Positions 1-33,989 are shown, counted from the stretch's first letter. The stretch is 44,891 nt of DNA from Bacilli bacterium (GCA_035377365.1 DAOSSK010000003.1:1-44891); one strand, 5' to 3'. The notes: generated by a model not told the origin, from the letters alone. Made by a program: numbers and translations.

Positions 1-366
1 GAACTTATTTGCATCATCACTAAAAAGTAAGGCATAAACTGGATGGCCAGTTACTTTTGCTAACTCCTTAGATTTTCCAATTAACTCTAATGACACTGGG
101 TGAATTTTGTTCCCATCATGTTCGATAAAAACAGTAATTCCTACCCACTCATCTTTATTAATCTTCTCTTCTTCAATCTCTTGAAACTTGAAAACATCAG
201 CAAACTTTTTAGCACAAATCCTACAAATCTTACAAGCAGCTTGATCAACATCAACTGAATCACCCTTAGCTACAATCGCCTTAAAAGGACAACTTTTAAT
301 ATAATCTTGAACTAAATCTTTATTTACATTCTTTTGATCAACTACGATAATTCCTTTTTTAGCCAT
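1..366 (-). CDS. etfA: Electron transfer flavoprotein alpha subunit, N-terminal part only (gene runs off the left edge). It opens with a small ferredoxin-like Cys motif.
   Basis: My own translation of the minus strand from the ATG at 366 gives MAKKGIIVVDQKNVNKDLVQDYIKSCPFKAIVAKGDSVDVDQAACKICRICAKKFADV...ITVFIEHDGNKIHPVSLELIGKSKELAKVTGHPVYALLF. It shows a CP...CxxCxxC cluster-type motif followed by the start of an EtfA-like domain. The start lies 2 nt after the etfB stop. It is absent from the ORF track because it is truncated. Confidence 0.7.
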   Translation of the reverse strand, partial: MAKKGIIVVDQKNVNKDLVQDYIKSCPFKAIVAKGDSVDVDQAACKICRICAKKFADVFKFQEIEEEKINKDEWVGITVFIEHDGNKIHPVSLELIGKSKELAKVTGHPVYALLFSDDANKF

Positions 367-367
367 C

Positions 368-1156
368 TTATACTACCTTCATTTCCTTTAATTTATTAGC
401 CAATTTTACTGCTAAATTTTCGTCTGTATCTTCCCATAATTCTTTATCAGTATTTTTAATTGGTGGGAACATTCTTTCAACTTGTGTTGGTGATCCTTTT
501 AGACCATAATGTGCTTCGTTTTGATCAACCATATCACTAAAATGAATTTGCCTAATTTCATAATCTTTAAACTTTTTACTTCTTCGATAAGAAGGAAGTC
601 TTGGCGTAAAAATACCTTTGTTCACCGCAATTAAACATGGATAATCAATTTCCCAAACTTCTTTTGTACTATCCATATCTACTTGAACGACAATGGATTT
701 TTCTTTGATCTCAATAATTTCATCAACGTAACTTAAATGAGGAATCTTTAAATTCTCTGCAATTTCTGGGCCTACTTGAGCAGTATCGCCATCTGTTGTT
801 TGCTTCCCACAAATAATCAAATCAGCTCCGCCAATTAGTTTAATTCCTTCAGCTAAAGTATAGCTAGTTGCTACAACATCAGCTCCTCCAAATTTACGAT
901 CAGTCATGATTGTAGCATCATCACAACCCATCCATAAAGATTCATTTAAGACTGCTAAAGCTGAAGGTGGTCCCATTGAGATTGTAGCTACATGGGCTCC
1001 ATTGAACTCTTTAATTCTTAAAGCTGTTTCAATCGCATATAAATCATAAGGATTCATCTTGGCGTTTCGACCATCTCTAATTAAGTTACCTGTAATGGGA
1101 TCTATTTCTACCTCAGTACTTGCAGGTACTTGTTTAATACATACTATTATTTTCAA
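368..1156 (-). CDS. etfB: Electron transfer flavoprotein beta subunit
   Basis: The N-terminus MKIIVCIKQVPASTEVEIDPITGNLIRDG...MNPYDLYAIETALRIKE is typical of EtfB/FixA. At 262 aa the size fits. An ATGA overlap joins it to the upstream gene. Confidence 0.85.
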   Translation of the reverse strand: MKIIVCIKQVPASTEVEIDPITGNLIRDGRNAKMNPYDLYAIETALRIKEFNGAHVATISMGPPSALAVLNESLWMGCDDATIMTDRKFGGADVVATSYTLAEGIKLIGGADLIICGKQTTDGDTAQVGPEIAENLKIPHLSYVDEIIEIKEKSIVVQVDMDSTKEVWEIDYPCLIAVNKGIFTPRLPSYRRSKKFKDYEIRQIHFSDMVDQNEAHYGLKGSPTQVERMFPPIKNTDKELWEDTDENLAVKLANKLKEMKVV

Positions 1157-1887
1157 CTTTCTTCCTCCTTAATGTACTCTATTGTTTTCTTATATAATAA
1201 CTCTTGATCTTTTTTATTATCAAAACCATGGTCTCCATCTTTGATAATAAAAGAAACCTTATTTTTTAACACTTCTAAATATTTATCGTTATATAACAAA
1301 GGCACAGCTAAATCCTTAGCTCCTTTAATTACATAAGCTTTTCCTTGATATTTACTTGCTAGCTCATACCAATTGTATTTATAACTAGAATCAAACATCG
1401 CTTTCGATAAAGAAAAGTTTAACGCAATTGTGTTACCTTTTTCATCCTTTTCAGCAATCTCATATCTTCTTTTCACAAGCTCATTAATATTACCAGCAGG
1501 ATTCCAAACAACTACCTTTTTTATTCTTGCTTCTTCATGAGCAACTGCTAAAGCTAAAGCCCCACCCATTGAATAACCTAATAAAATAACTTCCTTATAA
1601 CCTAAATCATAAGCATATTTAATAATACATCTAGCATCGCTAAATAGTGTATCAAAAGTAAAATCAGTAAATTCACCATCACTATCAAAATTACCATAAT
1701 AGTCAAATCTTAAAGAAGAGATATCTTCTTTTAATAAAATCCTTGATAAGCTTCGAAACATTCCGTTATGCTCAACTTTATGACCAGTATAGCCATGAAA
1801 CATAATTACTACCTTTTCACTTTCAGCTCTACTGTATATACCTCTTAAAGTATAGGCACCATTTTTTAAATCAACACTTTTTACCAT
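1153..1887 (-). CDS. Alpha/beta-fold serine esterase (cinnamoyl/feruloyl-esterase-like family)
   Basis: It carries the GYSMGG nucleophile elbow. The HGYTGHKVEHNGMF...LRFDYYGNFDSDGEF pattern resembles Lactobacillus cinnamoyl esterases. No signal peptide is present. Confidence 0.65.
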   Translation of the reverse strand: MVKSVDLKNGAYTLRGIYSRAESEKVVIMFHGYTGHKVEHNGMFRSLSRILLKEDISSLRFDYYGNFDSDGEFTDFTFDTLFSDARCIIKYAYDLGYKEVILLGYSMGGALALAVAHEEARIKKVVVWNPAGNINELVKRRYEIAEKDEKGNTIALNFSLSKAMFDSSYKYNWYELASKYQGKAYVIKGAKDLAVPLLYNDKYLEVLKNKVSFIIKDGDHGFDNKKDQELLYKKTIEYIKEEES

Positions 1888-2797
1888 AACTAGCTATTGC
1901 CTTTCTTAAATGTCCATGATTTTTCTCTAAATAATAATCAATTTTTTCCAAAGATTCTTCCTTAGTCAGTAAATGAAAAATAGTTTTTTTCACTGTTTTA
2001 TATTGCTTTAATTTCAAAGCAGCTTCTTCCTTTTCAACTTTTGTAATATCTTGAATAATTGACAATGCTCTTGCGACTAACTTTTCATTTGTAGGGTTAA
2101 CGTCAATCATTAAGTTTTCATAAACTTTACCCATTTGAATCATACTAGCAGTTGAAATCATATTTAAAATCATCTTCTGAGCAGTTCCTGATTTTAGTCT
2201 TGTAGAGCCAGTTAAAACTTCAGCTCCAGTAACAACTTCAATTTTCTTCTTGGCAATCTTACCAATTTCACTATTTAAAGATGTCGCAATTGATGCTGTT
2301 TTAGCCCCAATTTTATTGCCATATTCTATACCAGAGACTACATAAGGGGTTCTTCCACTAGCGCTTAAACCAATTAAAGTATCTTTATTAGACAAATTAA
2401 TTGCTTTTAAATCTTTTATAGCTAGCTCTTTATTATCTTCAGCTCCTTCTACAGCTTTGATAAATGCTTTTTCTCCCCCTGCAATCAACCCTTGAACTTG
2501 CTCGTAATCCACACTAAATGTAGGCGGGCATTCAACGGCATCTAAAATTCCTAATCTTCCGCTAGTCCCAGCGCCGATATAAATTAGTCTTCCGCCTTCT
2601 AGAAAACTTTTCACAACATCATCAATTACTAAAGCAATTTCTTCTAAATGCTTTTCAATTTCATAAGCAACTTGTTTATCTTCCTCATTGATTTTCTTGA
2701 TAATTCCTAAGCTATCTAAACTATCAATATCATAAGTATTCTTATTTCTTTTTTCTGTTGTTAGTTTACTTAAATCAACCATGGCGATACCTTCCAT
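1871..2797 (-). CDS. murQ: N-acetylmuramic acid 6-phosphate etherase
   Basis: It has a SIS domain with the MurQ signature GRLIYIGAGTSGRLGILDAVECPPTF and is about 300 aa. The true start may be the internal Met (MVDLSKL, at 2782). Confidence 0.9.
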   Translation of the reverse strand: MEGIAMVDLSKLTTEKRNKNTYDIDSLDSLGIIKKINEEDKQVAYEIEKHLEEIALVIDDVVKSFLEGGRLIYIGAGTSGRLGILDAVECPPTFSVDYEQVQGLIAGGEKAFIKAVEGAEDNKELAIKDLKAINLSNKDTLIGLSASGRTPYVVSGIEYGNKIGAKTASIATSLNSEIGKIAKKKIEVVTGAEVLTGSTRLKSGTAQKMILNMISTASMIQMGKVYENLMIDVNPTNEKLVARALSIIQDITKVEKEEAALKLKQYKTVKKTIFHLLTKEESLEKIDYYLEKNHGHLRKAIASYGKKC

Positions 2798-3905
2798 AAG
2801 TAATATTTCCTAAAATAGTATTTTCTTTAGCTCCAGTAACTGACTTCAAGTTTCCTGTTTTATAGTTGAAACTTAAATATCCTAAATAAGCAAAGCTTAA
2901 AGCTTCCTTAGCATCATTTTCAATTCCATAATCAGTCCCAGTAACAACTTCAACTCCTAGTCTTTTTCCTAACTCAGATACTACATATTTATTATGTGAT
3001 CCTCCTCCAGTAACTACGACTAAATCAATCTCTTTTAAGTATTTTTCATAGTTATAGACAATAGAATCTACTGTAATATTTGTAACTGTGCAAATAACAT
3101 CTTCCTTACTAAATTGGTCTAAATTGAACTTCTTAACTAAACTTTCAAAAAATGTCTCACTATATTGCTCTCTACCTGTACTCTTAGGTGGAGCTTTTTT
3201 AATAAATTTATCACTTATTAAATAATCATATAAAGGTTTAATAATTATTCCTTTAAAGGCTTTTTTACCATCTTCATCATAAGCCTTGCCATAATACTTG
3301 TGCATAAAGTAATCAATCATTACATTACCTGGACCAGTATCAAAGGCTAAAATTTCATCTTCCTTAGCATCTTTTGGTAAATATGTTAAGTTACCAATAC
3401 CACCAATATTTTGTAAGACGATGTTTTTCTTATTGTTATGATGAAGCAAAAAGTCAGTTTTAGGAACAAGTGGTGCACCTTCACCATCTAAGGCTACATC
3501 TTTAACTCTAAAATTAGATACTGTTGTGATATTTGTCTTAGCTACAATTACAGCTGCTTCTCCTATTTGTAAGGTAGATGCTCTTTGACCTTTTAATCCT
3601 TTAGGATTATGCCAAATTGTTTGACCATGGCTTGCAACTAAATCAATATCATCATAGCTATATTTGTCTTTTAAAACTTCGTCAATTGCATAAACAAAAT
3701 AATCTCCAAGTTCAAAATTCAAACTGCAGATTTCTTCTAGCTTCGCTTGATCGTTATTTAAATTCTTTTTTAGTTTAGCATTGAACTCTTTAGAGTAAGG
3801 ATAAGTAATAAAATTCAAAAGTTGAACTTTTTTACCTTTGATTTCTACTAATGCAGCATCTACACCATCTAAAGATGTCCCACTCATTAAACCGATAACT
3901 TTCAT
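2775..3905 (-). CDS. anmK: Anhydro-N-acetylmuramic acid kinase
   Basis: The N-terminus MKVIGLMSGTSLDGVDAALVE is the AnmK hallmark. At 376 aa the size fits. It overlaps both neighbours. Confidence 0.9.
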   Translation of the reverse strand: MKVIGLMSGTSLDGVDAALVEIKGKKVQLLNFITYPYSKEFNAKLKKNLNNDQAKLEEICSLNFELGDYFVYAIDEVLKDKYSYDDIDLVASHGQTIWHNPKGLKGQRASTLQIGEAAVIVAKTNITTVSNFRVKDVALDGEGAPLVPKTDFLLHHNNKKNIVLQNIGGIGNLTYLPKDAKEDEILAFDTGPGNVMIDYFMHKYYGKAYDEDGKKAFKGIIIKPLYDYLISDKFIKKAPPKSTGREQYSETFFESLVKKFNLDQFSKEDVICTVTNITVDSIVYNYEKYLKEIDLVVVTGGGSHNKYVVSELGKRLGVEVVTGTDYGIENDAKEALSFAYLGYLSFNYKTGNLKSVTGAKENTILGNITYGRYRHG

Positions 3906-4819
3906 ATTTTGCCTTTCTGTTTAGCTAAGTAATATGCTCCATAAATAGGATCAATACTACCTTCTAAATATTTTAACTTTATCTTCTCTTTCTGTAATTT
4001 TTCTAATACTAATTCTTGTAAGATTTTAGAGTTTTTAATATATTCTCCTGTAAATCCTAACACAGCAGTTTCCTTTAATTTTAAGTGCTTTACAAGTAAT
4101 TTGATTGACCTTATGATCCCTTTACTTGCATCATCTAAAATTTCTAAAGCTATTCTATCACCCGCTTTAGCTCCATCAGTAATTAAATAAGCATAACTTG
4201 CAATCTCTTTTTTATCATTGTGATACATAAAGACTCTTAAATCATCAATTGTGTTTAAATTAGTTGCTTTTATCAAAGATTGGGCTAAAGGATAAACTGT
4301 TCCTTTTTCTTCGTAATGCCTAACTGATTTAACAATTAAATCTTGAACAGCGCTAAAGGCACTACCGATTTCATAAATCATATAGCCCCAGCCACCAATC
4401 ATCATTGATTTACCATCTTTATTTAAACCAAAAGAAGCATGACCAGTACCAGAAATAACAACAATTCCTTCTTCATACTCATCTTTTAAATGAGAGTATA
4501 AAGCAATTAAAGTATCAGGGTTTAGTGATACATCAAGATTAGTTTTTGCTTTTAAATTAGAAACTAACCTTTCTAAAGCTTCTTTAGAATTAGCTTTAAG
4601 TCCACTTAAACCAATAACAATAGCTTTTAAGTCATACTCATTTTTAACTTCTTCGTACAACTTATAAACCCCTTCTTCTACATTCTCCAAAGCTGATTTA
4701 ACTGACGCGCTAGATCCTGCCTTAGCTTTTAGTTTCTTTACAATCGTTCCATCTTCTAAAAACAAGGCTAGTTTTGTAGAAGAGCCACCAGCATCAACAC
4801 CTATCATTGCTTTTTTCAT
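3902..4819 (-). CDS. BadF/BadG/BcrA/BcrD-type ATPase sugar kinase. GlcNAc/MurNAc kinase (MurK-like) is the candidate function.
   Basis: It has the N-terminal phosphate-1 motif IGVDAGGSSTKLAL and is 305 aa. It sits between anmK and the GH3 gene. Clostridium acetobutylicum MurK belongs to this fold family. Confidence 0.6.
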   Translation of the reverse strand: MKKAMIGVDAGGSSTKLALFLEDGTIVKKLKAKAGSSASVKSALENVEEGVYKLYEEVKNEYDLKAIVIGLSGLKANSKEALERLVSNLKAKTNLDVSLNPDTLIALYSHLKDEYEEGIVVISGTGHASFGLNKDGKSMMIGGWGYMIYEIGSAFSAVQDLIVKSVRHYEEKGTVYPLAQSLIKATNLNTIDDLRVFMYHNDKKEIASYAYLITDGAKAGDRIALEILDDASKGIIRSIKLLVKHLKLKETAVLGFTGEYIKNSKILQELVLEKLQKEKIKLKYLEGSIDPIYGAYYLAKQKGKI

Positions 4820-7443
4820 TATTCTTCTCCAATAATTTTGAAAACAAATGGTGTTTGCATCTTTAAATAATCTAAACTAAAATCACTCAAAATTGCTCTA
4901 CCAACTACGTTAACTGCTTTATCAGCTTCTAAATCAGTTAGCATAATATTTAATTCGCCAGAATATCTTTTCATTAAATCATTGTCAATTGTAATATCAT
5001 ACTTTGATCTTTTCTCTGTATTATTTGGTGCAATTCCTTTTTCTCCACGATATTTAGTACTGCGAATCATATACTCTGATTGATCAATTCTAACACGATG
5101 GACTTTATTGATAATTTCTTTTTCTTTTTCTGAAATTCCTTTTTTAAGAATTAAAGGTACAGTGAAATATTCTTTTTCTTCTGTTAACTCTTTTAATTCT
5201 TTATCGCTAATAATAGCATCACCAAAACAAATTTTCGAAAAACCTAAAAGTTCCATTTCTTGTTTTTGAAGAAAAACTGGCTTATCTCTCATAGCCTCTA
5301 CTGTAGGTAATCCTAAATATAAAGGAGGCCTTTTGTTTTCTAATGATGCAATATAACCCATAACTTTAAAGCCTAAATTGTTTAAAAAGTTGTTTCTTTT
5401 TTGTACATCTTCGTATTTTAACCCAGTATATTTCTTTGGATAAAAGTTATGACTAACCGTTACTAAAGATAAATCTATTCTTTCTTTTAAGTAATCAACT
5501 AACTCTTCCGTTAAAGTCGAAGCATTAAGTTCAATATCATAACCATCTAAAACTAAATCAACAATATCTTCTTTACTAAAACCCCAATCTAAACGAATGC
5601 GGTCTACACCAAACATCTTATGTTTATCAAAAGTTGGTTTGGAAACATCAACTATTAACTCTAAGCCTAAACTTTTAGCTTTATCCTTAATCGTCAAAAA
5701 CTCATCATAAACATGACTTCCTGCTTCAGGCATATGCATCGATACAAAAACAAAACTAAAGCCATTTGCCTTTAACTTTTCTAAATATGCTAAGTTATCT
5801 TTTAATTTATAATCATCTAAACCTAAATAAACACTAGCACCATATTCTTTGTTTTCCTTTAAAGAAACAGGTAATTTACCTTTTGGTCTAATTTTGCCAT
5901 TTAAATAACTAATTAAAACCTTAATTGAATTAGGTGTGTATTCATATAATGCTAAGTAATTAGGAACTTCCTTAAAGTTTAAAATATCAAAAGGATTTCT
6001 CATACTAATTACATATAGCTTTTTATCTAAACTATTCAATTTCTTTACAAGTTCAATTTGGCCTTGGTTAATTGTAGCATTATATGTACATAAAACTATT
6101 TGTTTATAATCTTGGGTTAATTCCAAATATTTATCAATTTCTTCTTTTGAAGGTTTAATCTTAATTCTATAAGGAACTAAGTTAGGATTATTTTCTAATC
6201 TTACCATATCGTAAATTGAACGATCGTTTTTCGAAAATTCATCTTCGATGATTGTAGAAGCAAATGGGTCAGGAGCTAAAACTAAAGTTTTTAAACTTGG
6301 ATCTACATTATCTCCTTTTACTAGTGTTAATGAATCCGATACAATTTCTAACGCTTTTGCTTTAGTTACTGGGTCAAGTAAGATTTTCTCTTGCTCATTA
6401 TAATTTCTATTAAAAAACTCATTCTTTAATAACTCATATGATTTAGCTTTATATTTTAATATCTTTTCTACTTTTTCATCTAATAAATGTAAAGGAAACT
6501 TTCCGTTCAACACTGCTTCCTTTACAAGCTCAACAGCTTTCATTTGTTTTGCCGGTGTTTGACTAACAAAAACCATATCAAGCCCTGCAAGTAAACCTTC
6601 TAAAACACCTTTAGGTGCTGTAACTGTTTCATCAATGGCTTTCATTTCCATACAATCACTTACAATTAAACCTTTAAAGCCTAATTCTTTCTTCAAAAGA
6701 TCAGTTAAAACTTTCTTTGATAAAGTAGCTGGTCTTTCACTATCATAGGCTTTAAAAACAATATGAGCGCTCATAATAGCATCTAAGCCTGAATCAATTG
6801 CTTTTTTAAATGGATAAAGTTCAATTTTGTTTAAGCGATCTTTTGAATGTTCAATTATTGGCAAGCCTAAATGACTATCAATATTTGTATCTCCGTGACC
6901 TGGAAAGTGTTTCGCAGTTGCAATAATACCTTTTTCTTGTAAACCTTTAATATAATTAATGCCATAACTTGCAACCTCTTTTTCACTGCTTGAATAACTT
7001 CTAACACCTATTACCGGATTATGAGGATTATTATTCACATCTAATACTGGAGCTAAGTTAAAGTTAATTCCTAAAGCTCTTAACTCTTCTCCCATCTTTT
7101 GCCCTACATAATAAGCATTGTTAATATTAGTTGCACCAATTGTCATGGCCCCCGGAAAGAATGTTGCATCATTAAAGATTCTTGTAACCATTCCTCCTTC
7201 TTGGTCAATTGTAATAAAAGGCATAATTCCTAATTGTTTATCTATATTTGTATGGATATCTTTATTTAATTTGTATAACTGTTTTACCGAAGAAATATTA
7301 CGAGAGAATAAAATTACATTTCCGATTTTATAATTTTTAATTAAATGTAATAAATCGTTATTAAACTCCTCGCCATAAAAACCAACGATAAATAATTGGC
7401 CAATTTTTTCTTCTAAAGTTAATTCATGTAATTTTTTCATCAA
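4819..7443 (-). CDS. Bifunctional fusion of a GH3 beta-N-acetylglucosaminidase (NagZ-like, residues about 1-530, nt 5848-7443) and a MupG-like DUF871 6-phospho-N-acetylmuramidase domain (nt 4819-5847)
   Basis: GH3 motifs are KHFPGHGDTNIDSHLGLP and GLIVSDCMEMKAI. The C-terminal part carries DUF871-type motifs: SVYLG, FVSMHMPE, RLDWGF, ELNAST, SHNFYPKKYTGL, GLPTVE and FGDA. There is no signal peptide and no stop or Met at the junction. Confidence 0.8.
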   Translation of the reverse strand: MMKKLHELTLEEKIGQLFIVGFYGEEFNNDLLHLIKNYKIGNVILFSRNISSVKQLYKLNKDIHTNIDKQLGIMPFITIDQEGGMVTRIFNDATFFPGAMTIGATNINNAYYVGQKMGEELRALGINFNLAPVLDVNNNPHNPVIGVRSYSSSEKEVASYGINYIKGLQEKGIIATAKHFPGHGDTNIDSHLGLPIIEHSKDRLNKIELYPFKKAIDSGLDAIMSAHIVFKAYDSERPATLSKKVLTDLLKKELGFKGLIVSDCMEMKAIDETVTAPKGVLEGLLAGLDMVFVSQTPAKQMKAVELVKEAVLNGKFPLHLLDEKVEKILKYKAKSYELLKNEFFNRNYNEQEKILLDPVTKAKALEIVSDSLTLVKGDNVDPSLKTLVLAPDPFASTIIEDEFSKNDRSIYDMVRLENNPNLVPYRIKIKPSKEEIDKYLELTQDYKQIVLCTYNATINQGQIELVKKLNSLDKKLYVISMRNPFDILNFKEVPNYLALYEYTPNSIKVLISYLNGKIRPKGKLPVSLKENKEYGASVYLGLDDYKLKDNLAYLEKLKANGFSFVFVSMHMPEAGSHVYDEFLTIKDKAKSLGLELIVDVSKPTFDKHKMFGVDRIRLDWGFSKEDIVDLVLDGYDIELNASTLTEELVDYLKERIDLSLVTVSHNFYPKKYTGLKYEDVQKRNNFLNNLGFKVMGYIASLENKRPPLYLGLPTVEAMRDKPVFLQKQEMELLGFSKICFGDAIISDKELKELTEEKEYFTVPLILKKGISEKEKEIINKVHRVRIDQSEYMIRSTKYRGEKGIAPNNTEKRSKYDITIDNDLMKRYSGELNIMLTDLEADKAVNVVGRAILSDFSLDYLKMQTPFVFKIIGEE

Positions 7444-7451
7444 TTTTCTCC

Positions 7452-8600
7452 TTAATAAATTAAGTATTTACTTCTTGTCTTACCAAACTTTTTCGTATCT
7501 TCTTTAATCCAAGCTAATTGTTCTTCTAAAGTAAGTAAGTATTTAGATATCTTATCAGTACCAGTATTTAAATCTAGCATCGTTCTTCCGCCTTCTCTCC
7601 AAGGTGCATTTACCTTAAAGTCATTTGGATATAAGTTTCTAATCGTATCAAGCAAAATAAAACCTAATGATACTGACTTTAACTTTTTGCGATCTAAAAT
7701 GTGAATATAAACTCCGCCACACAATAAGTCTTTATTTTTTGAATAAATTGGCGTGAAATATTGCGGTCTAAAATGAACACCATCTATCTTCATACTATTC
7801 AACTTATCTGCTAATTCCTTAGAATTAATATAAGGTGCTCCAATTAATTCAAATGGAGTTGCTGTTCCTCTTCCTTCACTCATATTTGTACCTTCAAAAA
7901 TACAAGTTCCTGGATATAGAATACAACTATTAACTGTTGGTAAATTAGGCGATGGATAAACATATAAAATGTCTAATTCATCTAAATATTTAGTGCGGTC
8001 ATAACCAGCCATCTTAATAACTTCTAAATCACAATCAATTTCGAACTCTTTATTAAACAAATAAGCAAGTTCTCCAATTGTCATTCCATGACGTTGGATT
8101 GTTGGGTAGTAACCAATAAAAGAACGATAATTTATATCTAAAATATTACCTTCATAATCAGAAGCATTAATTGGATTTGGGCGATCAAATACAACAAACT
8201 TCTTACCTTCTTCTTTGCAAGCCATCATTGAATAAGCCATCGTATAAACATAGGTGTAGAATCTTGCCCCTACATCTTGAATATCTATACACAAAATATC
8301 TATTTCGTCTAACATTTCTTTTGATGGTTTTCTTGTATCTCCATATAAAGAATAAACAGTAATTCCTGTTTCCTCATCTACGTAAGTTCCTAAATTAATT
8401 CCTGCCTGTAAGTTTCCTCTTACGCCATGCTCGGGACTAAATAAAGCAACTAAGTTAGTCTTTTCATTTAAAACATCAATTGTAGATTGATATTTTGAAT
8501 TAATACCAGTAGGGTTAGTAATTAAACCTACTCTCTTTCCTTTAAATAAATCTAAGTGTTCATCAATACGATCAATTCCTAATTTAAATTTCATTTTCAT
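7452..8600 (-). CDS. namZ: DUF1343 family exo-beta-N-acetylmuramidase (NamZ/YbbC-like)
   Basis: GLITNPTGIN...IDVL...LVALFSPEHGVRG matches the DUF1343 consensus. It is 382 aa with no signal peptide. Confidence 0.75.
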   Translation of the reverse strand: MKMKFKLGIDRIDEHLDLFKGKRVGLITNPTGINSKYQSTIDVLNEKTNLVALFSPEHGVRGNLQAGINLGTYVDEETGITVYSLYGDTRKPSKEMLDEIDILCIDIQDVGARFYTYVYTMAYSMMACKEEGKKFVVFDRPNPINASDYEGNILDINYRSFIGYYPTIQRHGMTIGELAYLFNKEFEIDCDLEVIKMAGYDRTKYLDELDILYVYPSPNLPTVNSCILYPGTCIFEGTNMSEGRGTATPFELIGAPYINSKELADKLNSMKIDGVHFRPQYFTPIYSKNKDLLCGGVYIHILDRKKLKSVSLGFILLDTIRNLYPNDFKVNAPWREGGRTMLDLNTGTDKISKYLLTLEEQLAWIKEDTKKFGKTRSKYLIY

Positions 8601-9390
8601 TCTCCTTTTCTAATTCATATTTATCGAAATCCTGAATATCATCAGGATTTTTTGTAAGGTATGCATATTTGCCTTTTATCATTCTAAAGTATAAATACTG
8701 AGGTAAACTAATTCCAAATAAACTAAAAAACGAAATAAGTAATAATGATAGCATTGGACTAAGAATTAAACCTAAAACAATTATTAATACTGGTGTTAAA
8801 AAGAAAAAAATCCCTGCTAGCAGTGTTGGTAAAAACAACTTAAAAGACATATAAAAACTAGCTTTAATATAATTCCATTTCGTCATTTGAAAATGGCTAT
8901 AGACAGCCCAAAATGAAATCACAGCTTGAGTTAAGAAAAATAATAAAACCCAATCAAGCCAGTAACCAACGGTATAAACTATCCCTATAAAATCATAAGT
9001 AAAATCTTCATGATTTAAAATCAAACTATAAGTTACTGATGATCCTAATAGAAAGGCATAAACAATTAAAATAAGCAATTCTATAAACCAAAGATCTTTA
9101 AAACTAAACCAAAGATTGGAAAAATAGGTTTTATACAAACCACTCCTTCGATACCCGCTTAAGTCTTTAATCGTTTTAAAACTAGCAATTGAAGTAATAA
9201 TTAATCCCAAAAGCGTTAGTAGAATTGCTAGATAAAAATAAGTCATTTTTTGAGTGGCAATAAATAGCACCCAAAAACCAAAACTCATAGTTATAATTAG
9301 TGAAAGATTCAATAAATTCATTATTATTAAACGATATGTCCATTCAAAAAAGATAAAAGCTTTACTATTGACATACTTTTCTACATCCAT
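8584..9390 (-). CDS. Polytopic membrane protein, DUF624/YesL-like accessory protein of sugar ABC loci
   Basis: It has about six hydrophobic segments. The N-terminal FFEWTYRLIIMNLLNL pattern resembles YesL-type proteins. It is the first gene after a promoter-like site. Confidence 0.5.
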   Translation of the reverse strand: MDVEKYVNSKAFIFFEWTYRLIIMNLLNLSLIITMSFGFWVLFIATQKMTYFYLAILLTLLGLIITSIASFKTIKDLSGYRRSGLYKTYFSNLWFSFKDLWFIELLILIVYAFLLGSSVTYSLILNHEDFTYDFIGIVYTVGYWLDWVLLFFLTQAVISFWAVYSHFQMTKWNYIKASFYMSFKLFLPTLLAGIFFFLTPVLIIVLGLILSPMLSLLLISFFSLFGISLPQYLYFRMIKGKYAYLTKNPDDIQDFDKYELEKENENEI

Positions 9391-12792: not shown

Positions 12793-13749
12793 TTAAATCT
12801 TTTTATCGTAAGTTGTATAACTCTTCCAAACCTCAAATCCTAAACGATTATAAACGTCTAAAAGGCCTGTCCAATCAATTAAAAGTTCTGTGCATCCACG
12901 ATCATGTAAGTCTTTAATTGCAATTTTCAATAAATTACTACCGATTTTTTGTCTCCTATGGTCACTATCAACACCTAAAGGTCCAAGTGCACCTAGATTA
13001 TTGAACTTTTGATACCAAGTAATATGATAAGGGAATACTGGAACTTTTGTATCACTTAACCTTACAAAACCAACAACTTGATCTTTATCTAAGCAAATTA
13101 TATAATCCTTACCAAATATTCCTGTCTCATAATAATCTTGGAATTCAAATTCCCATCTTCCAGGAAAACATTTCTCAAAAAATGCTTTAGTAGCTTTATA
13201 ATCCTTTTTCTCAAAATAACGATATTGATATTTTTCCATATTCTCAAAATGTTCAATTACATCTTTTTGGTAATGGTAGCATACCATATCATGAGTAGGC
13301 CCTAAATTGTTATAACCAATTTTTTCTAAAAAGTTTGTTGTTAGATGATTGAAATCAACCGGAACTCCTGGAAAGAAATTATTAATATCTTTTCCAATCC
13401 AAATAGTCTTTTTACCCAATTTCTTAAAACCAGCTTCTACTTTTTCAAAAAGAGTAGTGGCAATTTTTTGCTTACGACATTTTCTCTTTACATAAAACAA
13501 ACTAATAAAGCCAATATCGTGATATCTTTTAATCATATCATTCATAAACTCTTTAGAAATAATAAAACCAACAACTTCATCTCCTTCTAATGCTACAAAA
13601 GAATTCTCTTTAAGAACATATTTGTTCTCAGTAACATTTTGTTTGAAAATAAAATCAGAAATAGGATACATTCCAAGTAAATCATCATTCCATAATTCTT
13701 GGATTAAATGGTAATCTTTAAATTGTTTAAAATTTTTATACTCTATCAT
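12793..13749 (-). CDS. Tandem-GNAT N-acetyltransferase (GlmA-like glucosamine/glucosaminide N-acetyltransferase is a candidate)
   Basis: It contains two acetyl-CoA-binding-type segments (RKCRKQKIATTLF and HRRQKIGSNLL) in a 318-aa protein. It overlaps the GH3-NagB gene by 4 nt. Confidence 0.6.
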   Translation of the reverse strand: MIEYKNFKQFKDYHLIQELWNDDLLGMYPISDFIFKQNVTENKYVLKENSFVALEGDEVVGFIISKEFMNDMIKRYHDIGFISLFYVKRKCRKQKIATTLFEKVEAGFKKLGKKTIWIGKDINNFFPGVPVDFNHLTTNFLEKIGYNNLGPTHDMVCYHYQKDVIEHFENMEKYQYRYFEKKDYKATKAFFEKCFPGRWEFEFQDYYETGIFGKDYIICLDKDQVVGFVRLSDTKVPVFPYHITWYQKFNNLGALGPLGVDSDHRRQKIGSNLLKIAIKDLHDRGCTELLIDWTGLLDVYNRLGFEVWKSYTTYDKKI

Positions 13750-16025
13750 TTATTATCTCCATATGCAGCATCATCGATAATTACAGTAACATTTGGATGC
13801 TTATGTAAAATGCTTGCCGGAAAATCTATAGATACTTTCTTAGATAAAAGTTTATTAACTGCATCTTGCTTTCCTTTTCCACTAATTACCATCAAAATTG
13901 CTTTTGCATCCATAATATTCTTAATTCCCATCGTAATTGCATACTTAGGAACTTCATCAATTGATGCAAAAAATCTCTTATTATCTTCTCTTGTTTTCTC
14001 AGCTAACTTAACTACAAATGTTTCTTGAGTAAAGGCAGTTCCTGGTTCATTAAAACCAATATGTCCATTACCACCAATTCCTAATAACTGTAAATCAACA
14101 GGATTTTTCTTTAATAAATCATTATACTTTTTACAGTTAGCTTCTAAGTCATCTCCTTCAGATGAAGGTAAATGAGTATTTGCTTTTTTAATATCAATGT
14201 GTTTAAATAAGTTTTCATTCATATAAGAATAATAACTTTGTTCATGATTCTTATCTAACTGGCAATATTCATCTAAATTAAAACTCTTTATATCTTTAAA
14301 AGAAATCTCCTTAGCTTCATACTTTTTAATTAGATTTTTATAAGTACCCAAAGGACTTGAACCAGTAGCTAAACCTAAATTAGCTTTAGGGTTTTTCTTA
14401 ACAACATCAGCTATTATTTCAGCGGCCTTTTTACTCATTTCTTCATAGTCTTTAACTTTAATAATTTTCATATTTCCTCCTTCTAATTTAATCGGCAAGT
14501 TTCCTTTAAACTTACCGCTATATATTAATTTTACTAAACTTTTCAAAGAAAGTAAAGTTGCTTCATATAAGCAGATATAGCTCTCAACATTTTCTAAATG
14601 TAAGATATCATAAGGTGATCTCATACTAACTACAATTGTTTTATTTGGATCTAGGACTTGCCAAACTTTAGTTTGATAATCCCCCTTAGTTACATTGTAA
14701 GTACAAAAAATTACTTTATCTGCTTTTTTAATTTCATCCTTAATTAACTTATAATTAATAAATTCTTGGTTTATTACAACTTCATTACAATCTAAGAAAT
14801 CTTTTAAAGTAAAATAATCATTTTCTTTGTTATCAACTAAACTAAATAGTTTAATTTCTGGAAAGATTGCAAAAATCTTTTCTTGTTTTTTTATTGGAAC
14901 TAGCCCCTTATCTTTTACTAAAGTGATTGATTCTAAAGCAAACTTTTTTGCTAGTTTAGATTTTTCTTCCTTTTTAATAACACTTAAATTGTTTTCAAAA
15001 GCTAAATCTTTTTCCAAATAAATTTCTTTATATTCTAAAATCTTACCTACTGCTTCATCTACTCTTGAAAGAGGAATTTCTCCTTCTTCCACTAAACTAA
15101 CAAAAGTATTATAGATTTCTTTTTGTTCATTTAAATCGGCCTTACCGCAGAAACATAAAATATCATTTCCCGCTAAGACTCCTTTCTTGACAATCTCTTT
15201 TATACTATAGTTACCCCAAATAGCTTTCATTGTTAATGAATCAGTTACAACTAGTCCTTTAAATCCTAACTTTTCTTTAAGAAGTTTAGTAATAATGTTA
15301 TAAGACAAACTAGCAGGATTGTCTTTATCTAAACATTGATAAACAATATGCGACATCATTATTCCATTAGCGCCATTTTCAATAGCTTTTTTAAAAGGAT
15401 AAAGTTCTACTTTTTCAATTTCTTCTAAAGACTTATCTACTACTGGTAAACCTAAATGACTATCTACATTCGTATCACCATGACCCGGAAAATGTTTAAC
15501 CGTTGCAATTAGCTTAGCATCTTTAAAACCTTGACTTGCTTTTAAAACATATCTTGAAACAATCTCTGGATTATCAGAATAACTTCTTGAGTTAATTACA
15601 GGATTATAAGGATTATTATTAACATCTGCAACAGGAGCAAAGTTAATACTAAAACCTAAATGTTTTAAGTCCCTGCCTGCCCCTTTATATAACTCATATG
15701 GATCACTTCCATTAGCCGCAAAACCCATCGCAGAAAGAAGTGGTGTTATTCCTTTTTCAATTCTTTGAACTGGTCCACCTTCTTGGTCTAAAGCAATAAA
15801 TGGCCTAATCTTTTTATTTTGAGAAATCTTGCTATTTAATTTACTTACTTGCTTTAAAGAAGTAATGTTTCTTTTAAATAAAATCAAGCCTCCAAGCTCT
15901 AACTCATTTAAAAGATAATCTACTTGTTTATTATAACTAGTTCCATGAAAACTAAACATAAGCATTTGCCCAACTTTTTGTTTTAAACTTAAATCTTTTA
16001 GCTTCATCAAATCCTCCTTAAACAA
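13746..16025 (-). CDS. nagB: Fusion ORF of a GH3 beta-N-acetylglucosaminidase (nt 14472-16025) and glucosamine-6-phosphate deaminase NagB (nt 13746-14471)
   Basis: GH3 motifs are KHFPGHGDTNVDSHLGLP and GLVVTDSLTMKAI. The C-terminal 241 aa are MKIIKVKDYEEMSKKAAEII...LGLATGSSP...FNLDEY...LLGIGGNGHIGFNEPGT, a full-length NagB. There is no stop between the two parts. Confidence 0.85.
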   Translation of the reverse strand: MFKEDLMKLKDLSLKQKVGQMLMFSFHGTSYNKQVDYLLNELELGGLILFKRNITSLKQVSKLNSKISQNKKIRPFIALDQEGGPVQRIEKGITPLLSAMGFAANGSDPYELYKGAGRDLKHLGFSINFAPVADVNNNPYNPVINSRSYSDNPEIVSRYVLKASQGFKDAKLIATVKHFPGHGDTNVDSHLGLPVVDKSLEEIEKVELYPFKKAIENGANGIMMSHIVYQCLDKDNPASLSYNIITKLLKEKLGFKGLVVTDSLTMKAIWGNYSIKEIVKKGVLAGNDILCFCGKADLNEQKEIYNTFVSLVEEGEIPLSRVDEAVGKILEYKEIYLEKDLAFENNLSVIKKEEKSKLAKKFALESITLVKDKGLVPIKKQEKIFAIFPEIKLFSLVDNKENDYFTLKDFLDCNEVVINQEFINYKLIKDEIKKADKVIFCTYNVTKGDYQTKVWQVLDPNKTIVVSMRSPYDILHLENVESYICLYEATLLSLKSLVKLIYSGKFKGNLPIKLEGGNMKIIKVKDYEEMSKKAAEIIADVVKKNPKANLGLATGSSPLGTYKNLIKKYEAKEISFKDIKSFNLDEYCQLDKNHEQSYYSYMNENLFKHIDIKKANTHLPSSEGDDLEANCKKYNDLLKKNPVDLQLLGIGGNGHIGFNEPGTAFTQETFVVKLAEKTREDNKRFFASIDEVPKYAITMGIKNIMDAKAILMVISGKGKQDAVNKLLSKKVSIDFPASILHKHPNVTVIIDDAAYGDNK
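14469..14481 (-). promoter_or_regulatory. Internal Shine-Dalgarno (AGGAGG) plus in-frame ATG at the GH3/NagB junction
   Basis: The minus strand reads AAA TTA GAA GGA GGA AAT ATG AAA ATT. AGGAGG lies 4 nt upstream of the Met that begins the NagB domain. Confidence 0.6.
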
Positions 16026-32709: not shown

Positions 32710-33989
32710 ATACTTTTTACTTCTTTTGTCCATAGACTTTTAATTGACTTTTGAGCCTCAGGATATTTGTCTACTGTATCAATTAAGTTGTGATAAGTGA
32801 AGAAAATTTCCCCAGAAACATAATCTAAAGTGCTGTTAAATAACAATTGATTTTTGATTTCATCTGGATTTGCCCATTGATTAGTACCACCCATACGATA
32901 TAAACCCATACCAATATAAAGTTTAGTTTTTGTTTTTTTAGAGGCTTCATTCCACCACTTGGCTAGATCAGCATACTTAACAATTTCTTTTTCACTGCCA
33001 TCTTCTAAAACTTTATAGTAATCTAAATTGAAATAATCTTGAGGAACTACATAGTCAATATAACCTTTTTCCATCCAATAATAGATATCTGCGTATAAGC
33101 CTTCATAACAATTGAAACAAGATTCATCATTGTTTGAACCATATTCCCAAGCACTTTCTTTAGAAGAATATTTAGTATTAGTTCTATAAATACCAAAAGG
33201 GCTAATACCAAATTCAACTTTGCGATCTAATGTATCTAACTTTTCTTTCATCATCTTAATCAAACAAGTTACATTGTATCTTCTAAAATCAGATTTGTTT
33301 TTAATACCAACTTGGTATTGTTTCTTCTCTTCATTAGGATCTACATATTCTTCATAAGGATAGAAATAATCATCCATATGAATAGCTTTAACATCATATT
33401 TCTTAGCAATTTCTAAAGCTGTATCACTTACAAACTCTTGGACTTTTTTTGATGCTGGATCTAAAATTAAAGCTTTACGGCTAGTTTCCATAACTAAATC
33501 TGGGTTTTGCTTAGCAAAACTTTTATCAGGAAGCGAAGCTAAAAATTCTTCTTTGGTCATTTCTAACTTATCCAAAGTAACTTGACTAACACGATATGGA
33601 TTAAGCCAAGCATGAACTTCAATTCCTGCCTTTTTAGCTTTCTCTACAAAATAACCAAAGACATCAAAACCAGGATATTTTCCTTGCTCACCAGTAATAT
33701 AAGCACTCCAAGGATTTAACTCTGATTCATAGAAAGCATCATTAGTAGGTCTTACTTGAAAGATAACTGCATTCATTTTATATTCTTTTACTGTTTTAAT
33801 AATATCATCTAAATGCTTTTTATAGCTTGCTACATCTTTCATTTTTGGCAAATCAATATTAGCTACAGTTGATACCCAAACTCCCCTTAAAGCATCTTTT
33901 TCTTCTATTTTTTCAGGAATCAATACTGGTATATCACTTCTAAAATAAGTAACATATCCTTCTTTTAAATCTCTTTTTATTTTTTTCAT
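32706..33989 (-). CDS. Glycosyl-hydrolase-like family 10 (GHL10/DUF187, YngK-like) protein, cytoplasmic
   Basis: LRGVWVSTVANIDLP...MNAVIFQVRPTNDAFYESELNPWSAYITG...GIEVHAWLNPYRV matches the GHL10 pattern. No signal peptide is present. Confidence 0.65.
   Translation of the reverse strand: MKKIKRDLKEGYVTYFRSDIPVLIPEKIEEKDALRGVWVSTVANIDLPKMKDVASYKKHLDDIIKTVKEYKMNAVIFQVRPTNDAFYESELNPWSAYITGEQGKYPGFDVFGYFVEKAKKAGIEVHAWLNPYRVSQVTLDKLEMTKEEFLASLPDKSFAKQNPDLVMETSRKALILDPASKKVQEFVSDTALEIAKKYDVKAIHMDDYFYPYEEYVDPNEEKKQYQVGIKNKSDFRRYNVTCLIKMMKEKLDTLDRKVEFGISPFGIYRTNTKYSSKESAWEYGSNNDESCFNCYEGLYADIYYWMEKGYIDYVVPQDYFNLDYYKVLEDGSEKEIVKYADLAKWWNEASKKTKTKLYIGMGLYRMGGTNQWANPDEIKNQLLFNSTLDYVSGEIFFTYHNLIDTVDKYPEAQKSIKSLWTKEVKSI

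Follow-up and report, generated by a model that had tools for sequence, protein, structure and literature searches.

A NagZ-MupG fusion encoded beside NamZ in a PTS-free locus of a Bacilli bacterium

The window (the whole 44,891-nucleotide stretch of DNA that was analyzed) carries at 4819-7443 one uninterrupted reading frame consisting of a two-domain GH3 NagZ, a linker, and a complete GH170 MupG domain. Sequence comparison places the GH170 domain in a distinct, previously undescribed clade, here called class A, which is PTS-independent and linked to NamZ. The fusion protein is quite possibly a cytoplasmic, bifunctional exo-glycosidase for peptidoglycan consumption, for which we infer the substrates and the order of steps. 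The host is a tiny sludge bacterium that apparently is wall-less; MraY was not found in its genus. The features of the fusion are as follows.

4819..7443, minus strand: NagZ-MupG fusion ORF, 874 codons from TTG 7443, stop codon at 4819-4821
5860..7443, minus strand: two-domain GH3 beta-N-acetylglucosaminidase (NagZ) module, residues 1-528, signal peptide absent
6871..6912, minus strand: NagZ signature KHFPGHGDTNIDSH, residues 178-191, with the Asp-His dyad D189/H191
6655-6657, minus strand: nucleophile D263 (VSDCMEM), as read from the sequence and aligned with the 6k5j motif
5842..5859, minus strand: six-residue linker KENKEY, residues 529-534, from the GH3 end (..GKLPVSL) to the first GH170 barrel strand (GASVYLGL)
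4822..5841, minus strand: GH170 (MupG-like) module, residues 535-874, TIM barrel (MupG_N) and C-terminal beta domain (MupG_C)

The likelier start codon is the ATG at 7440, one codon after the TTG and 7 nt behind an AAGGAG; it yields a protein of 873 aa, the length of database cluster P0002. The junction (..GKLPVSL-KENKEY-GASVYLGL..) contains no stop, start, or frameshift, and it lies where the preliminary description had put it, near residue 533. Positions 2700-8700 are covered by contigs of four runs from four studies (two DNA libraries and two RNA libraries, the latter metatranscriptomes) with no indels, and the four substitutions found within the fusion ORF create no stops. The span from AnmK to NamZ is present in a single RNA-library contig at a depth of 254. 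A stop or frameshift at the junction had been named beforehand as the outcome that would split the ORF into two genes, and the contigs from independent studies cross it in frame. In one relative (G023), the reading frame shifts between the two halves at an A10 homopolymer run, as would be expected if the fusion were an artifact of assembly or sequencing, or gene decay, and two genes were really present. This explanation is extremely improbable given the indel-free junction in all four runs, the same open frame in independent assemblies of the genus itself and of more than 12 other genera, the more than 120 protein clusters with the same architecture, and the intact conserved residues in both halves. 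The AlphaFold model of the 874-residue protein has a pLDDT of 90.4 and a pTM of 0.79.

NagZ enzymes carry the signature KH(F/I)PG(H/L)Gx4D(S/T)H, which includes an Asp-His dyad, and a nucleophile Asp. Residues K178-H191 and D263 of the fusion are invariant across 64 fused homologues, and the matching motifs align in 6k5j. Pfam GH3_N (PF00933) covers residues 9-330 (E 7e-93, 312 bits against a cut-off of 27), and the NCBIfam equivalog NF003740 (beta-N-acetylhexosaminidase) scores 219.5 bits against a cut-off of 207. GH3_C matches residues 455-533 with 20 bits, which is under its cut-off of 31, but the second GH3 domain is real because the two-domain GH3 enzyme 6k5j aligns with residues 7-528 (E 2e-102) and matches the structure model with a TM of 0.90. 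The NagZ half is expected to cleave GlcNAc-beta-1,4-MurNAc as an exo-enzyme, by hydrolysis or phosphorolysis, removing the non-reducing GlcNAc. The same two-domain GH3 fold, dyad motif (KHFPGHGx4D(S/T)H), and nucleophile Asp occur in Bacillus subtilis NagZ/YbbD (PDB 3bmx, 4gyj) and in 6k5j, a GH3 N-acetylglucosaminidase from Paenibacillus sp. FPU-7. YbbD is a secreted, extracellular lipoprotein, whereas the module described here has no signal peptide and is followed C-terminally by a second glycosidase. Among PDB sequence matches of the fusion protein, the second best is the fungal GH3-GNAT protein 4zm6 (E 6e-88), which also has a second catalytic module C-terminal to a NagZ-type two-domain GH3; however, that module is an acetyltransferase and not a glycosidase, and the protein is eukaryotic with no MurNAc link.

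The GH170 half is complete. MupG_N (PF19200) matches residues 535-754 (E 2.5e-50, 171.7 bits against a cut-off of 24) and MupG_C (PF05913) residues 765-869 (E 9e-26, 90.7 bits against a cut-off of 24.4); the closest PDB entries are 2p0o (E 1e-33) and 1x7f (E 9e-27). The domain identities proposed in the preliminary description are sustained. In a comparison of MurP-linked, cellobiose-PTS-linked, and class-A GH170 proteins, 27 of 27 family-wide invariant positions are retained (S537, Y539, F566, D599, R617, D619, G621, N640, S642, N666, F667, Y668, P669, G674, P707, L712, T714, E716, R719, R785, D787, R794, Y827, G829, E830, N845, and V846). Four of these are arginines, which argues that binding of an anionic substrate has been kept. 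Twelve (D599, R617, D619, N640, N666, E716, R719, R785, D787, R794, Y827, and E830) are conserved in 64 fused homologues. The GH170 catalytic residues “remain enigmatic” (Kluj 2018, PMC6262408), and our literature searches found no later mechanistic GH170 paper that defines them. The earlier proposal that loss of the DUF871 catalytic residues would disprove the assignment is thus inapplicable as written.

Staphylococcus aureus MupG (SAUSA300_0192) is the 6-phospho-N-acetylmuramidase of CAZy family GH170 (Kluj et al., 2018, PMC6262408). It and the fused domain both consist of MupG_N and MupG_C, are cytoplasmic, are encoded with MurQ, and deliver or would deliver MurNAc-6P to MurQ, and the family-wide invariant residues are kept here. 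The S. aureus enzyme is a stand-alone protein of ~350 aa with a substrate made by the MurP PTS. In contrast, the domain in the window sits behind NagZ in a PTS-free genome, beside a cytoplasmic NamZ, and in a separate clade that is altered at Q/E832, Y824, and T567. The genetic coupling to a MurP PTS that marks a strict S. aureus-type MupG orthologue is not found. Proteins P0186, P0158, and P0167, which are 32-35% identical to the MupG domain here, adjoin a MurP-type EIIBC gene and MurQ. None of 18 class-A loci has a PTS neighbor, and class-A GH170 genes nearly always lie directly downstream of a cytoplasmic NamZ. Relative to four PTS-linked members with checked gene context, class A replaces Q/E832 with C/G/S/N/A, Y824 with F, and T567 with I/V; the PTS-linked residues T567, L569, Y824, and Q/E832 are V567, M569, M824, and N832 in the window protein. 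Outside the clade, 87 of 96 proteins have Q or E at position 832, against 0 of 140 inside it; in 119 aligned fused proteins the residue is C/G/S/N/A/T and never Q/E. The replacement of polar residues suggests that specificity may have changed. MurP-linked P0158 has E at this position, so residue 832 is unlikely to be a phosphate ligand.

The fusion is part of an operon on the minus strand with the following elements.

9485-9457, minus strand: terminator of the upstream Big_2 gene, 13-bp stem
9442-9414, minus strand: promoter-like site, the region's best, TTGTTA-17-TATAAT plus an upstream TG, from a consensus scan only
8584..9390, minus strand: membrane protein, 268 aa, first gene of the unit, no Pfam match; its counterpart in locus L029 is DUF624/YesL-like
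7452..8600, minus strand: NamZ exo-beta-N-acetylmuramidase (NamZ_N E 6e-83, NamZ_C E 6e-48), N-terminus MKMKFKLGIDRIDEH
3902..4819, minus strand: MurK-type MurNAc/GlcNAc 6-kinase (BadF/BadG family), ATG overlapping the TAA stop of the fusion (TAATG)
2775..3905, minus strand: AnmK, anhydro-MurNAc kinase (Pfam E 6e-99; NCBIfam NF007148, 431.9 bits against a cut-off of 387)
1871..2797, minus strand: MurQ, MurNAc-6-phosphate etherase (NCBIfam TIGR00274, 373 bits against a cut-off of 302)
1153..1887, minus strand: alpha/beta-hydrolase carboxylesterase (Pfam), with esterases as nearest solved relatives, e.g., 7q4h and feruloyl/cinnamoyl esterases

The absence of a signal peptide indicates that NamZ is cytoplasmic. 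The cassette [membrane protein]-NamZ-(NagZ)-MupG-(kinase)-AnmK-MurQ-esterase is kept, complete or to the contig end, in the 16 loci examined, with the exception of G017 (L019), where NamZ is absent. The carboxylesterase closes the cassette in 15 of 16 fetched loci, and the sixteenth (L019) reaches the contig end just past MupG; in locus L025 it directly follows MupG. The enzyme might serve as a de-O-acetylase for 6-O-acetyl-MurNAc. Elsewhere in the locus (34953-36050) is an AmiE-like beta-lactamase-fold gene. The B. subtilis muropeptide rescue operon murQ-murR-murP-amiE-nagZ-namZ has NagZ, NamZ, and MurQ in common with this set, but there the hydrolases are secreted and MurNAc enters via MurP, while here the hydrolases are cytoplasmic and uptake is by ABC systems (PMC8054146). 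ABC-type uptake genes are present in the locus as previously noted. The reported lack of a PTS also stands: none was found among the window ORFs scanned with Pfam (a scan that excludes three ORFs near 40.7-44.8 kb), and EIIC, HPr, and Enzyme I had no match in genomes G000 (78% complete), G001 (98%), and G002 (88%).

In the most probable scenario, the two halves of the protein take turns in trimming imported cell-wall glycan, and the 6-phosphate is supplied without a PTS. Wall fragments of other bacteria would enter through the ABC systems encoded upstream, and the NagZ half would take off the non-reducing GlcNAc. The exposed MurNAc end, once 6-phosphorylated, would be released as MurNAc-6-phosphate by the GH170 half, exposing a fresh GlcNAc end, so that on glycans of at least three sugars each domain would make the substrate of the other. 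MurNAc-6P would pass to MurQ, and GlcNAc to the kinase and then NagA/NagB. Without a PTS, the likeliest source of the phosphate would be cytoplasmic, namely the MurK-type ATP kinase, whose gene is translationally coupled to the fusion. The kinase has a BadF/BadG-type ASKHA fold (PF01869, 87 bits against a cut-off of 31.5), and in the PDB it is closest to 8zo3, “N-acetylmuramic acid/N-acetylglucosamine kinase” (E 9e-24, residues 3-301); it reached no NCBIfam equivalog cut-off. Its acceptance of glycosidically bound MurNAc is something we infer; the MurK-type kinases characterized so far act on free MurNAc and GlcNAc, and none is known to phosphorylate a disaccharide. In Tannerella forsythia MurK, MurNAc is bound as the beta-anomer and the catalytic Asp holds O4 and O6 (PMC10465942). 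The same geometry is presented by a MurNAc that is beta-linked at a non-reducing end. Pairing of a kinase and a phospho-glycosidase without a PTS has a precedent in BglK with BglA-2 (PMC13264166). In the Klebsiella pneumoniae system, as that source relays it, the ATP kinase BglK 6-phosphorylates the glycoside and a 6-phospho-beta-glucosidase cleaves it (Thompson 2002, cited in PMC13264166); its resemblance to the proposed route is a functional analogy only. The kinase gene does not adjoin MupG in 4 of 15 loci that extend past MupG (L019 ends at the contig end), and those genomes have a copy elsewhere.

The cytoplasmic NamZ directly upstream, which the preliminary description missed, makes the MupG domain puzzling. 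NamZ was reported to be missing in all cases where a MupG-like protein occurs (Mueller et al., 2021, PMC8054146). This mutual exclusion is contradicted by the relatives in the order, where 33 of 34 GH170-bearing genomes also encode NamZ, usually as the adjacent gene. The kinase-first route looks redundant, because NamZ, NagZ, and the kinase could degrade unsubstituted glycan without MupG.

Wall polymers of Gram-positive bacteria are joined to MurNAc O6 through phosphate. Native wall MurNAc-6-phosphate at linkage sites would be a third possible answer to the phosphate problem, additional to the two ideas of the preliminary description, a kinase acting on oligomers and a non-phosphorylated substrate. 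The GH170 half might remove MurNAc ends that are already 6-phosphorylated on import, namely the stubs left from teichoic acids, capsules, and other secondary polymers phosphodiester-linked to MurNAc O6. NamZ would then handle ordinary MurNAc ends and MupG those that NamZ cannot, which would keep exo-degradation from stalling, with no phosphorylation of glycosides in the cytoplasm. We regard this reading as unlikely, yet it explains why streamlined ~1 Mb genomes keep NamZ and MupG side by side in the cytoplasm (33 of 34) and why GH170 persists without a PTS, and it fits the full set of retained invariants, four arginines included, and a habitat of sludge and digesters, which are rich in dead Gram-positive biomass. 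Against this, such ends would be a minority of MurNAc residues, a phosphodiesterase that trims the polymer to a MurNAc-6P stub was not seen in the locus, ABC uptake of phosphorylated oligosaccharides is unproven, and the sequence fits this route and the kinase route alike. It is less likely still that class-A GH170 is phosphate-independent and cleaves an unphosphorylated or otherwise substituted glycoside, such as 6-O-acetyl-MurNAc-GlcNAc, peptide-bearing MurNAc ends, or a non-muramic hexosaminide, as a new GH170 specificity. The clade that holds all fused forms is never PTS-linked and is altered at 832, 824, and 567; GH170 specificity varies, as ChbE is genetically implicated in chitobiose-6P use (PMC12791066); and the conserved carboxylesterase would suit O-acetylated MurNAc. 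However, plain MurNAc-GlcNAc is already served by NamZ, the esterase alone could strip the O-acetyl ahead of NamZ, E832 of P0158 argues against a phosphate-binding role for that position, and the four invariant arginines are all kept. A rather unlikely synthesis of these ideas is that the GH170 half and the whole NamZ-linked, PTS-free clade form a new specificity class for cytoplasmic removal of O6-substituted MurNAc ends that NamZ refuses, the O6 group being a 6-phosphate stub (teichoic-acid or secondary-polymer linkage) or a 6-O-acetyl. If true, wall-less, genome-reduced bacteria could digest decorated Gram-positive walls to completion, and the NagZ fusion would be a two-headed enzyme walking down the glycan strand.

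The database search called for earlier recovered the same fusion, uninterrupted, in 16 of 25 searched family genomes, with identities of 44-93%, and in more than 120 protein clusters; the two other genomes of the genus are among the 16. In one relative (G015), NagZ and MupG are encoded separately, and an ATGA stop/start overlap marks the corresponding position; the sister family has NamZ-MupG with no intervening NagZ, MupG unfused, and NagZ elsewhere. The fusion probably arose when two overlapping genes of an operon lost the stop codon that separated them. The preliminary description read it as a Rosetta stone placing both activities on one imported fragment. That reading is reasonable, if overstated: the fusion does show a shared pathway, but channeling on one fragment is not shown by fusion alone, and the argument is weakened because the genes were already operon neighbors and because the genome has another fusion of neighboring genes, GH3-NagB. 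That the fusion has no kinetic meaning and arose neutrally as a shrinking genome compacted its genes, with domains that work independently like the separate enzymes of relatives, is somewhat unlikely. One base change at the G015 overlap would fuse the genes, the sister family manages with unfused MupG and a NagZ encoded elsewhere, the genome also has the GH3-NagB fusion, fused and unfused proteins intermingle in the GH170 tree, and on disaccharides the two activities are never sequential. Standing against neutrality are retention in 12 or more genera, at identities as low as 44%, with a short junction of fixed length, and the predicted arrangement of the domains, which the model's pTM suggests is defined. 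A further retained fusion, with the MurK-type kinase as a third domain at the MupG C-terminus in a monophyletic set of 16 protein clusters, also speaks against it. As evidence for the kinase-first route this kinase fusion is ambiguous, since phosphorylation of released GlcNAc explains it equally well.

Downstream of the carboxylesterase are two electron-transfer genes.

368-1156, minus strand: EtfB
1-366, minus strand: EtfA N-terminus, ferredoxin domain, running off the window

Behind EtfB and EtfA, loci L025 and L029 carry a gene whose product combines FAD_binding_4 and FAD-oxidase_C domains. The encoded FAD-dependent (D-lactate-type) dehydrogenase could oxidize the D-lactate released by MurQ.

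The gene at 4819-7443 (minus strand) is a single open reading frame of 874 codons when counted from a TTG; an ATG one codon later, 7 nt past an AAGGAG, gives 873 residues, the length of the database cluster that matches it. The preliminary description of a GH3 N-acetylglucosaminidase (NagZ) and a MupG-like (GH170, DUF871) domain in one protein was borne out by Pfam, which matched GH3_N, MupG_N and MupG_C. Its claim that neither a stop nor a start interrupts the junction near residue 533 also held, as the frame is open there and the two parts are joined by a six-residue linker.

Domains of the fused protein (residue numbers)
9-330: GH3_N (Pfam E 7e-93)
455-533: GH3_C (Pfam, under the cut-off)
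535-754: MupG_N (Pfam E 2.5e-50)
765-869: MupG_C (Pfam E 9e-26)

Despite the sub-cut-off GH3_C match, the second GH3 domain is real: residues 7-528 align with 6k5j, a GH3 N-acetylglucosaminidase of two domains (E 2e-102), and the AlphaFold model (pLDDT 90.4, pTM 0.79) superposes both on 6k5j (TM 0.90) and on the NagZ of B. subtilis. Sixty-four fused homologues all preserve KHFPGHGDTNIDSH (residues 178-191), which is the NagZ signature, and VSDCMEM, the motif with the nucleophile D263. At the junction (..GKLPVSL-KENKEY-GASVYLGL..), the usual end of a two-domain NagZ is followed by six residues and then by the first GH170 barrel strand, as judged by comparison with 2p0o. A structure search with the model found no solved structure spanning both halves. 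Inspection of the N-termini indicated that NamZ, the exo-beta-N-acetylmuramidase encoded next to the fusion, and the fusion itself both lack a signal peptide.

Sequencing runs that contain the gene come from 11 studies, which sampled sludge, wastewater and anaerobic digesters; six of the libraries are RNA. Contigs from two DNA and two RNA runs (four studies) were compared with window 2700-8700; no base was inserted or deleted over this interval, the junction was crossed by contigs in all four runs, and the four substitutions within the ORF were each synonymous or missense. One RNA-library contig covered the whole 6 kb at a depth of 254, although such a contig does not establish a single transcript, and DNA may have been carried over into the RNA libraries. 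The same fusion was also sought in other genomes and databases. The frame is uninterrupted in 16 of 25 family genomes, comprising the window's, both congeners (87% and 93% identity) and 13 others, and the same three Pfam domains occur in more than 120 clusters of a 5.8-billion-protein collection at 45-56% identity. Where named, these clusters are called “beta-N-acetylhexosaminidase” or “MupG family TIM barrel fold protein,” and they derive from Bacilli, Bacillota or Acholeplasma-like MAGs. Indel-free contigs from four studies and the same frame in independent assemblies rule out an artefact concealing two separate genes, the probability of which we regard as negligible. In one RNA-library contig (X17), G>T at window 6732 gives P238T at a residue invariant in 64 homologues, probably through strain variation or a single-contig error.

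Our literature searches located no paper on a NagZ-MupG fusion. The fused architecture is already in public protein databases, unremarked; all of its parts are known enzyme families, and the system as such is of a known kind. New here are evidence for this copy from reads and RNA libraries, an account of how its junction originated, one common origin for a triple fusion, a quantified breach of NamZ/MupG exclusion, and the definition of a GH170 subfamily that is independent of a PTS and marked by signature substitutions.

Every gene between about 38.2 kb and position 1 lies on the minus strand, and together they make up a cell-wall-consuming island.

Genes and sites of the island
Island, minus strand: DAP decarboxylase; M19 dipeptidase; AmiE-like beta-lactamase-fold protein
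Island, minus strand: GHL10 and GH20 glycosidases
Island, minus strand: giant solute-binding protein and four permeases
Island, minus strand: DUF5696
Island, minus strand: Big_2 lipoprotein
12793-13749 and 33986-34981, minus strand: two double-GNAT proteins, the first directly after GH3-NagB
13746-16025, minus strand: GH3 NagZ paralogue fused in frame to a NagB-type glucosamine-6-phosphate deaminase, 759 aa
9485-9414: strong terminator, then the best promoter-like site of the region, ahead of the unit studied
First gene after the 9485-9414 site, minus strand: membrane protein
7452-8600, minus strand: NamZ
4819-7443, minus strand: NagZ-MupG fusion
3902-4819, minus strand: MurK-type kinase (best PDB match 8zo3)
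Downstream of the kinase, minus strand: AnmK, then MurQ
1153-1887, minus strand: carboxylesterase (nearest solved relatives 7q4h and feruloyl/cinnamoyl esterases)
1-1156, minus strand: EtfB and ferredoxin-domain EtfA, end of the cassette

The window's genome comes to 0.79 Mb at 78% completeness, against about 1.0 Mb for a congener that is 98% complete. MraY and FtsW/RodA were not found in this 78% complete genome, and MraY was not found in either congener. EIIC, HPr, and Enzyme I were not found in any of the three genomes of the genus, in agreement with the absence of a PTS noted earlier for the locus. Therefore, the organism appears to be both wall-less and PTS-less, and the island would serve feeding rather than recycling. 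The wall-less picture agrees with the mix of walled and wall-less members in GTDB Acholeplasmatales (PMC10868615). The system offers a testable handle on how wall-lost bacteria feed on the walls of other bacteria in digesters and guts. Literature searches located no paper on an Acholeplasma with MurQ. Mur_ligase_M matched the genome once (G000:C15:4091-4750, a 430-aa frame), probably at FolC and not at a Mur ligase, since MraY and FtsW were not found.

To our knowledge, S. aureus MupG is the sole biochemically characterised member of GH170. It cleaves MurNAc-6P-GlcNAc, a product of the MurP PTS (PMC6262408), and ChbE is genetically linked to a cellobiose-type PTS (PMC12791066). GH170 is encoded by 34 of the 41 genomes of this order, whereas only three of the 41 have a glucose-type EIIC above the family cut-off and eight of the 41 an HPr; in the sister family EIIC and HPr are each found in 0 of 16 genomes, yet 15 of the 16 encode GH170. 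NamZ and MupG-like proteins were described as excluding each other in work on muropeptide rescue in B. subtilis (Mueller et al., PMC8054146). This rule is breached here: NamZ also occurs in 33 of the 34 GH170-bearing genomes and lies directly upstream in all loci examined, G017 excepted. NagZ, NamZ, and a MurNAc/GlcNAc kinase could dismantle unsubstituted glycan, so a conserved MupG must do something beyond NamZ.

Relative G017 (L019, G017:C17 7805-11110) is the sole GH170-bearing relative in which NamZ was not found, and there the membrane protein adjoins NagZ-MupG. A glucose-type PTS EIIC above the cut-off, which three relatives have, is also encoded in G017 (G017:C9:86093-87061); this fits a trade-off between NamZ and a PTS, though as a single case it is only suggestive.

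Comparison of 236 aligned GH170 domains in a tree placed all 120 fused or triple-fused proteins in one clade of 140 tips (class A), with 20 stand-alone proteins that are unfused forms of the order and an Erysipelotrichales MAG protein. Position 832, two residues past the invariant E830, is C/G/S/N/A/T/M/D and never Q/E inside the clade, and Q/E in 87 of the 96 proteins outside it. Accompanying changes in the clade are Y824 to F, T567 to I/V, L569 to A/G, and G706 to P, with K670 and S664 fixed. Gene context tracks the clade split. Outside the clade, protein clusters P0186, P0158, and P0167 adjoin a MurP-type EIIBC gene and MurQ, P0201 adjoins a cellobiose-type PTS, and P0157 adjoins binding proteins; no PTS neighbour was present at the class-A loci examined (16 of this order plus two further loci, L025 and L029). 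Class A is a GH170 subfamily that is PTS-independent and carries signature substitutions. It is a large conserved branch, fused to NagZ and sometimes also to the kinase, that is present in RNA libraries and in genomes without any PTS, beside the supposedly exclusive NamZ.

MurP-linked, cellobiose-type, and class-A members have 27 invariant residues in common, all of them kept here, including R617, R719, R785, R794, D599, D619, E716, D787, E830, and H665/N666; in the AlphaFold model, the strand and helix positions place them at the C-terminal ends of predicted barrel strands. Our searches found no paper on GH170 structure or mechanism, and catalytic residues are undefined in the literature found. 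Positions 824 and 832 are candidate specificity positions in this family without a known mechanism. A role of Q/E832 as phosphate ligand is unsupported, and position 832 is unlikely to touch phosphate, because one MurP-linked member carries Glu there. Loss of R799 in the fused clade was also ruled out, as R799 is kept in at least 90% of a 64-sequence alignment.

The origin of the fusion can be read from gene order in relatives. Across the 16 genomes of the sister family, MupG stands alone as a gene of about 345 aa within a NamZ-MupG-(kinase)-AnmK-MurQ-esterase cassette, and the orthologous NagZ is located elsewhere. In the window's family, the NagZ gene sits between NamZ and MupG. The two are separate in relative G015, with an ATGA stop/start overlap (..KL* / MKTVASIYVGL), and fused in most other genomes; in the window, the kinase ATG in turn overlaps the stop of the fusion (TAATG). 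The fusion thus joins adjacent genes of a single operon that are translationally coupled. Relative G022 and 16 protein clusters carry a triple fusion with the downstream kinase (GH3-MupG_N-MupG_C-BadF/G, about 1177 aa), and monophyly of the 16 clusters (support 1.0, GH170 tree) points to a single origin. Fused and unfused tips are otherwise intermixed in that tree, with weak support. In G023 (L011, G023:C7, about 8660-8700), an A10 homopolymer run puts the two halves into different frames, and the second half has no start codon; misassembly, a recent frameshift, or slippage could each account for this.

The fusion may be a neutral outcome of gene compaction, a reading compatible with any substrate but one that we consider rather unlikely. 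The same genome has the GH3-NagB fusion 6 kb upstream, the GH3 part of which is 41% identical to the first NagZ and the two parts of which are adjacent genes in relatives. Further GH3 paralogues of the order lie within open frames of 860-1200 aa, suggesting various GH3 fusion partners in this lineage. In the reading that we favour, the protein would be a two-headed exo-hydrolase that acts in the cytoplasm on peptidoglycan glycan taken up from outside; GH3 would take off GlcNAc, GH170 would take off the next MurNAc as MurNAc-6P for MurQ, and the coupled MurK-type kinase would supply the phosphate. On chains of at least three sugars, the product of each domain would be the substrate of the other, and only there could the fusion help. 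Taken as one statement, we hold this tentatively, with confidence somewhat short of even.

The kinase is favoured as phosphate source because it is the next gene, translationally coupled, and, in one clade, joined to MupG in a single protein. The beta-anomer of MurNAc, with O4 and O6 free, is the form bound by T. forsythia MurK (PMC10465942), and a PTS-free precedent exists in BglK paired with a phospho-beta-glucosidase (PMC13264166). A non-reducing beta-linked MurNAc would offer the geometry bound by MurK, and the BglK precedent and the retained anion-binding arginines also favour kinase-made phosphate. Against this route, we know of no MurK shown to act on a glycoside; it duplicates NamZ, and phosphorylation of released GlcNAc explains the kinase fusion equally well. 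Action of the GH170 domain on MurNAc-6P ends that pre-exist at polymer linkage sites of Gram-positive walls would best account for coexistence with NamZ, but we judge it unlikely. A subfamily with changed specificity that does not need phosphate, acting for example on 6-O-acetyl-MurNAc, seems less probable still, given the retained arginines. AnmK as a source of the phosphate was ruled out on chemistry, since the 1,6-anhydro ring that it opens is on the reducing-end residue, which cannot become the MupG glycone. The system also offers a testable handle on how 6-phospho-glycosidase chemistry operates without a PTS, whether the sugar phosphates are made by a kinase or exist beforehand.

GH4 counts well-known 6-phospho-glycosidases among its members. 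At L025 3886-6155 (Erysipelotrichales MAG), the neighbourhood of a class-A MupG includes a GH4 glycosidase gene with a BadF/G kinase gene directly after it, again without a PTS, which hints that kinase-then-phosphoglycosidase logic is perhaps wider in PTS-poor Bacilli.

Other cassette genes may act on modified wall sugars or their products. The cassette closes with the carboxylesterase at 15 of the 16 loci fetched from relatives, the remaining locus being cut short by its contig end; at L025 the esterase directly follows MupG. A 6-O-acetyl group on MurNAc blocks the same hydroxyl that kinases must phosphorylate, and the esterase is a candidate 6-O-acetyl-MurNAc de-O-acetylase. In related loci (L025 493-3864; L029 10801-14227), EtfB/EtfA are followed by a gene with FAD_binding_4 and FAD-oxidase_C domains; together they look like an Etf-coupled D-lactate dehydrogenase for the D-lactate cut from MurNAc-6P by MurQ. 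The double-GNAT proteins might restore N-acetyl groups to wall sugars that have lost them, allowing GH3 enzymes to act; the fungal GH3 enzyme 4zm6 bears a GNAT glucosamine N-acetyltransferase region. In congeners G001 (G001:C59:539-1138) and G002 (L024, G002:C52, 10641-11443), about 800 bp separate the membrane-protein gene from NamZ, and the NamZ frame is open for 576-586 codons versus 385 in the window, which could reflect an N-terminal extension or an inserted segment.
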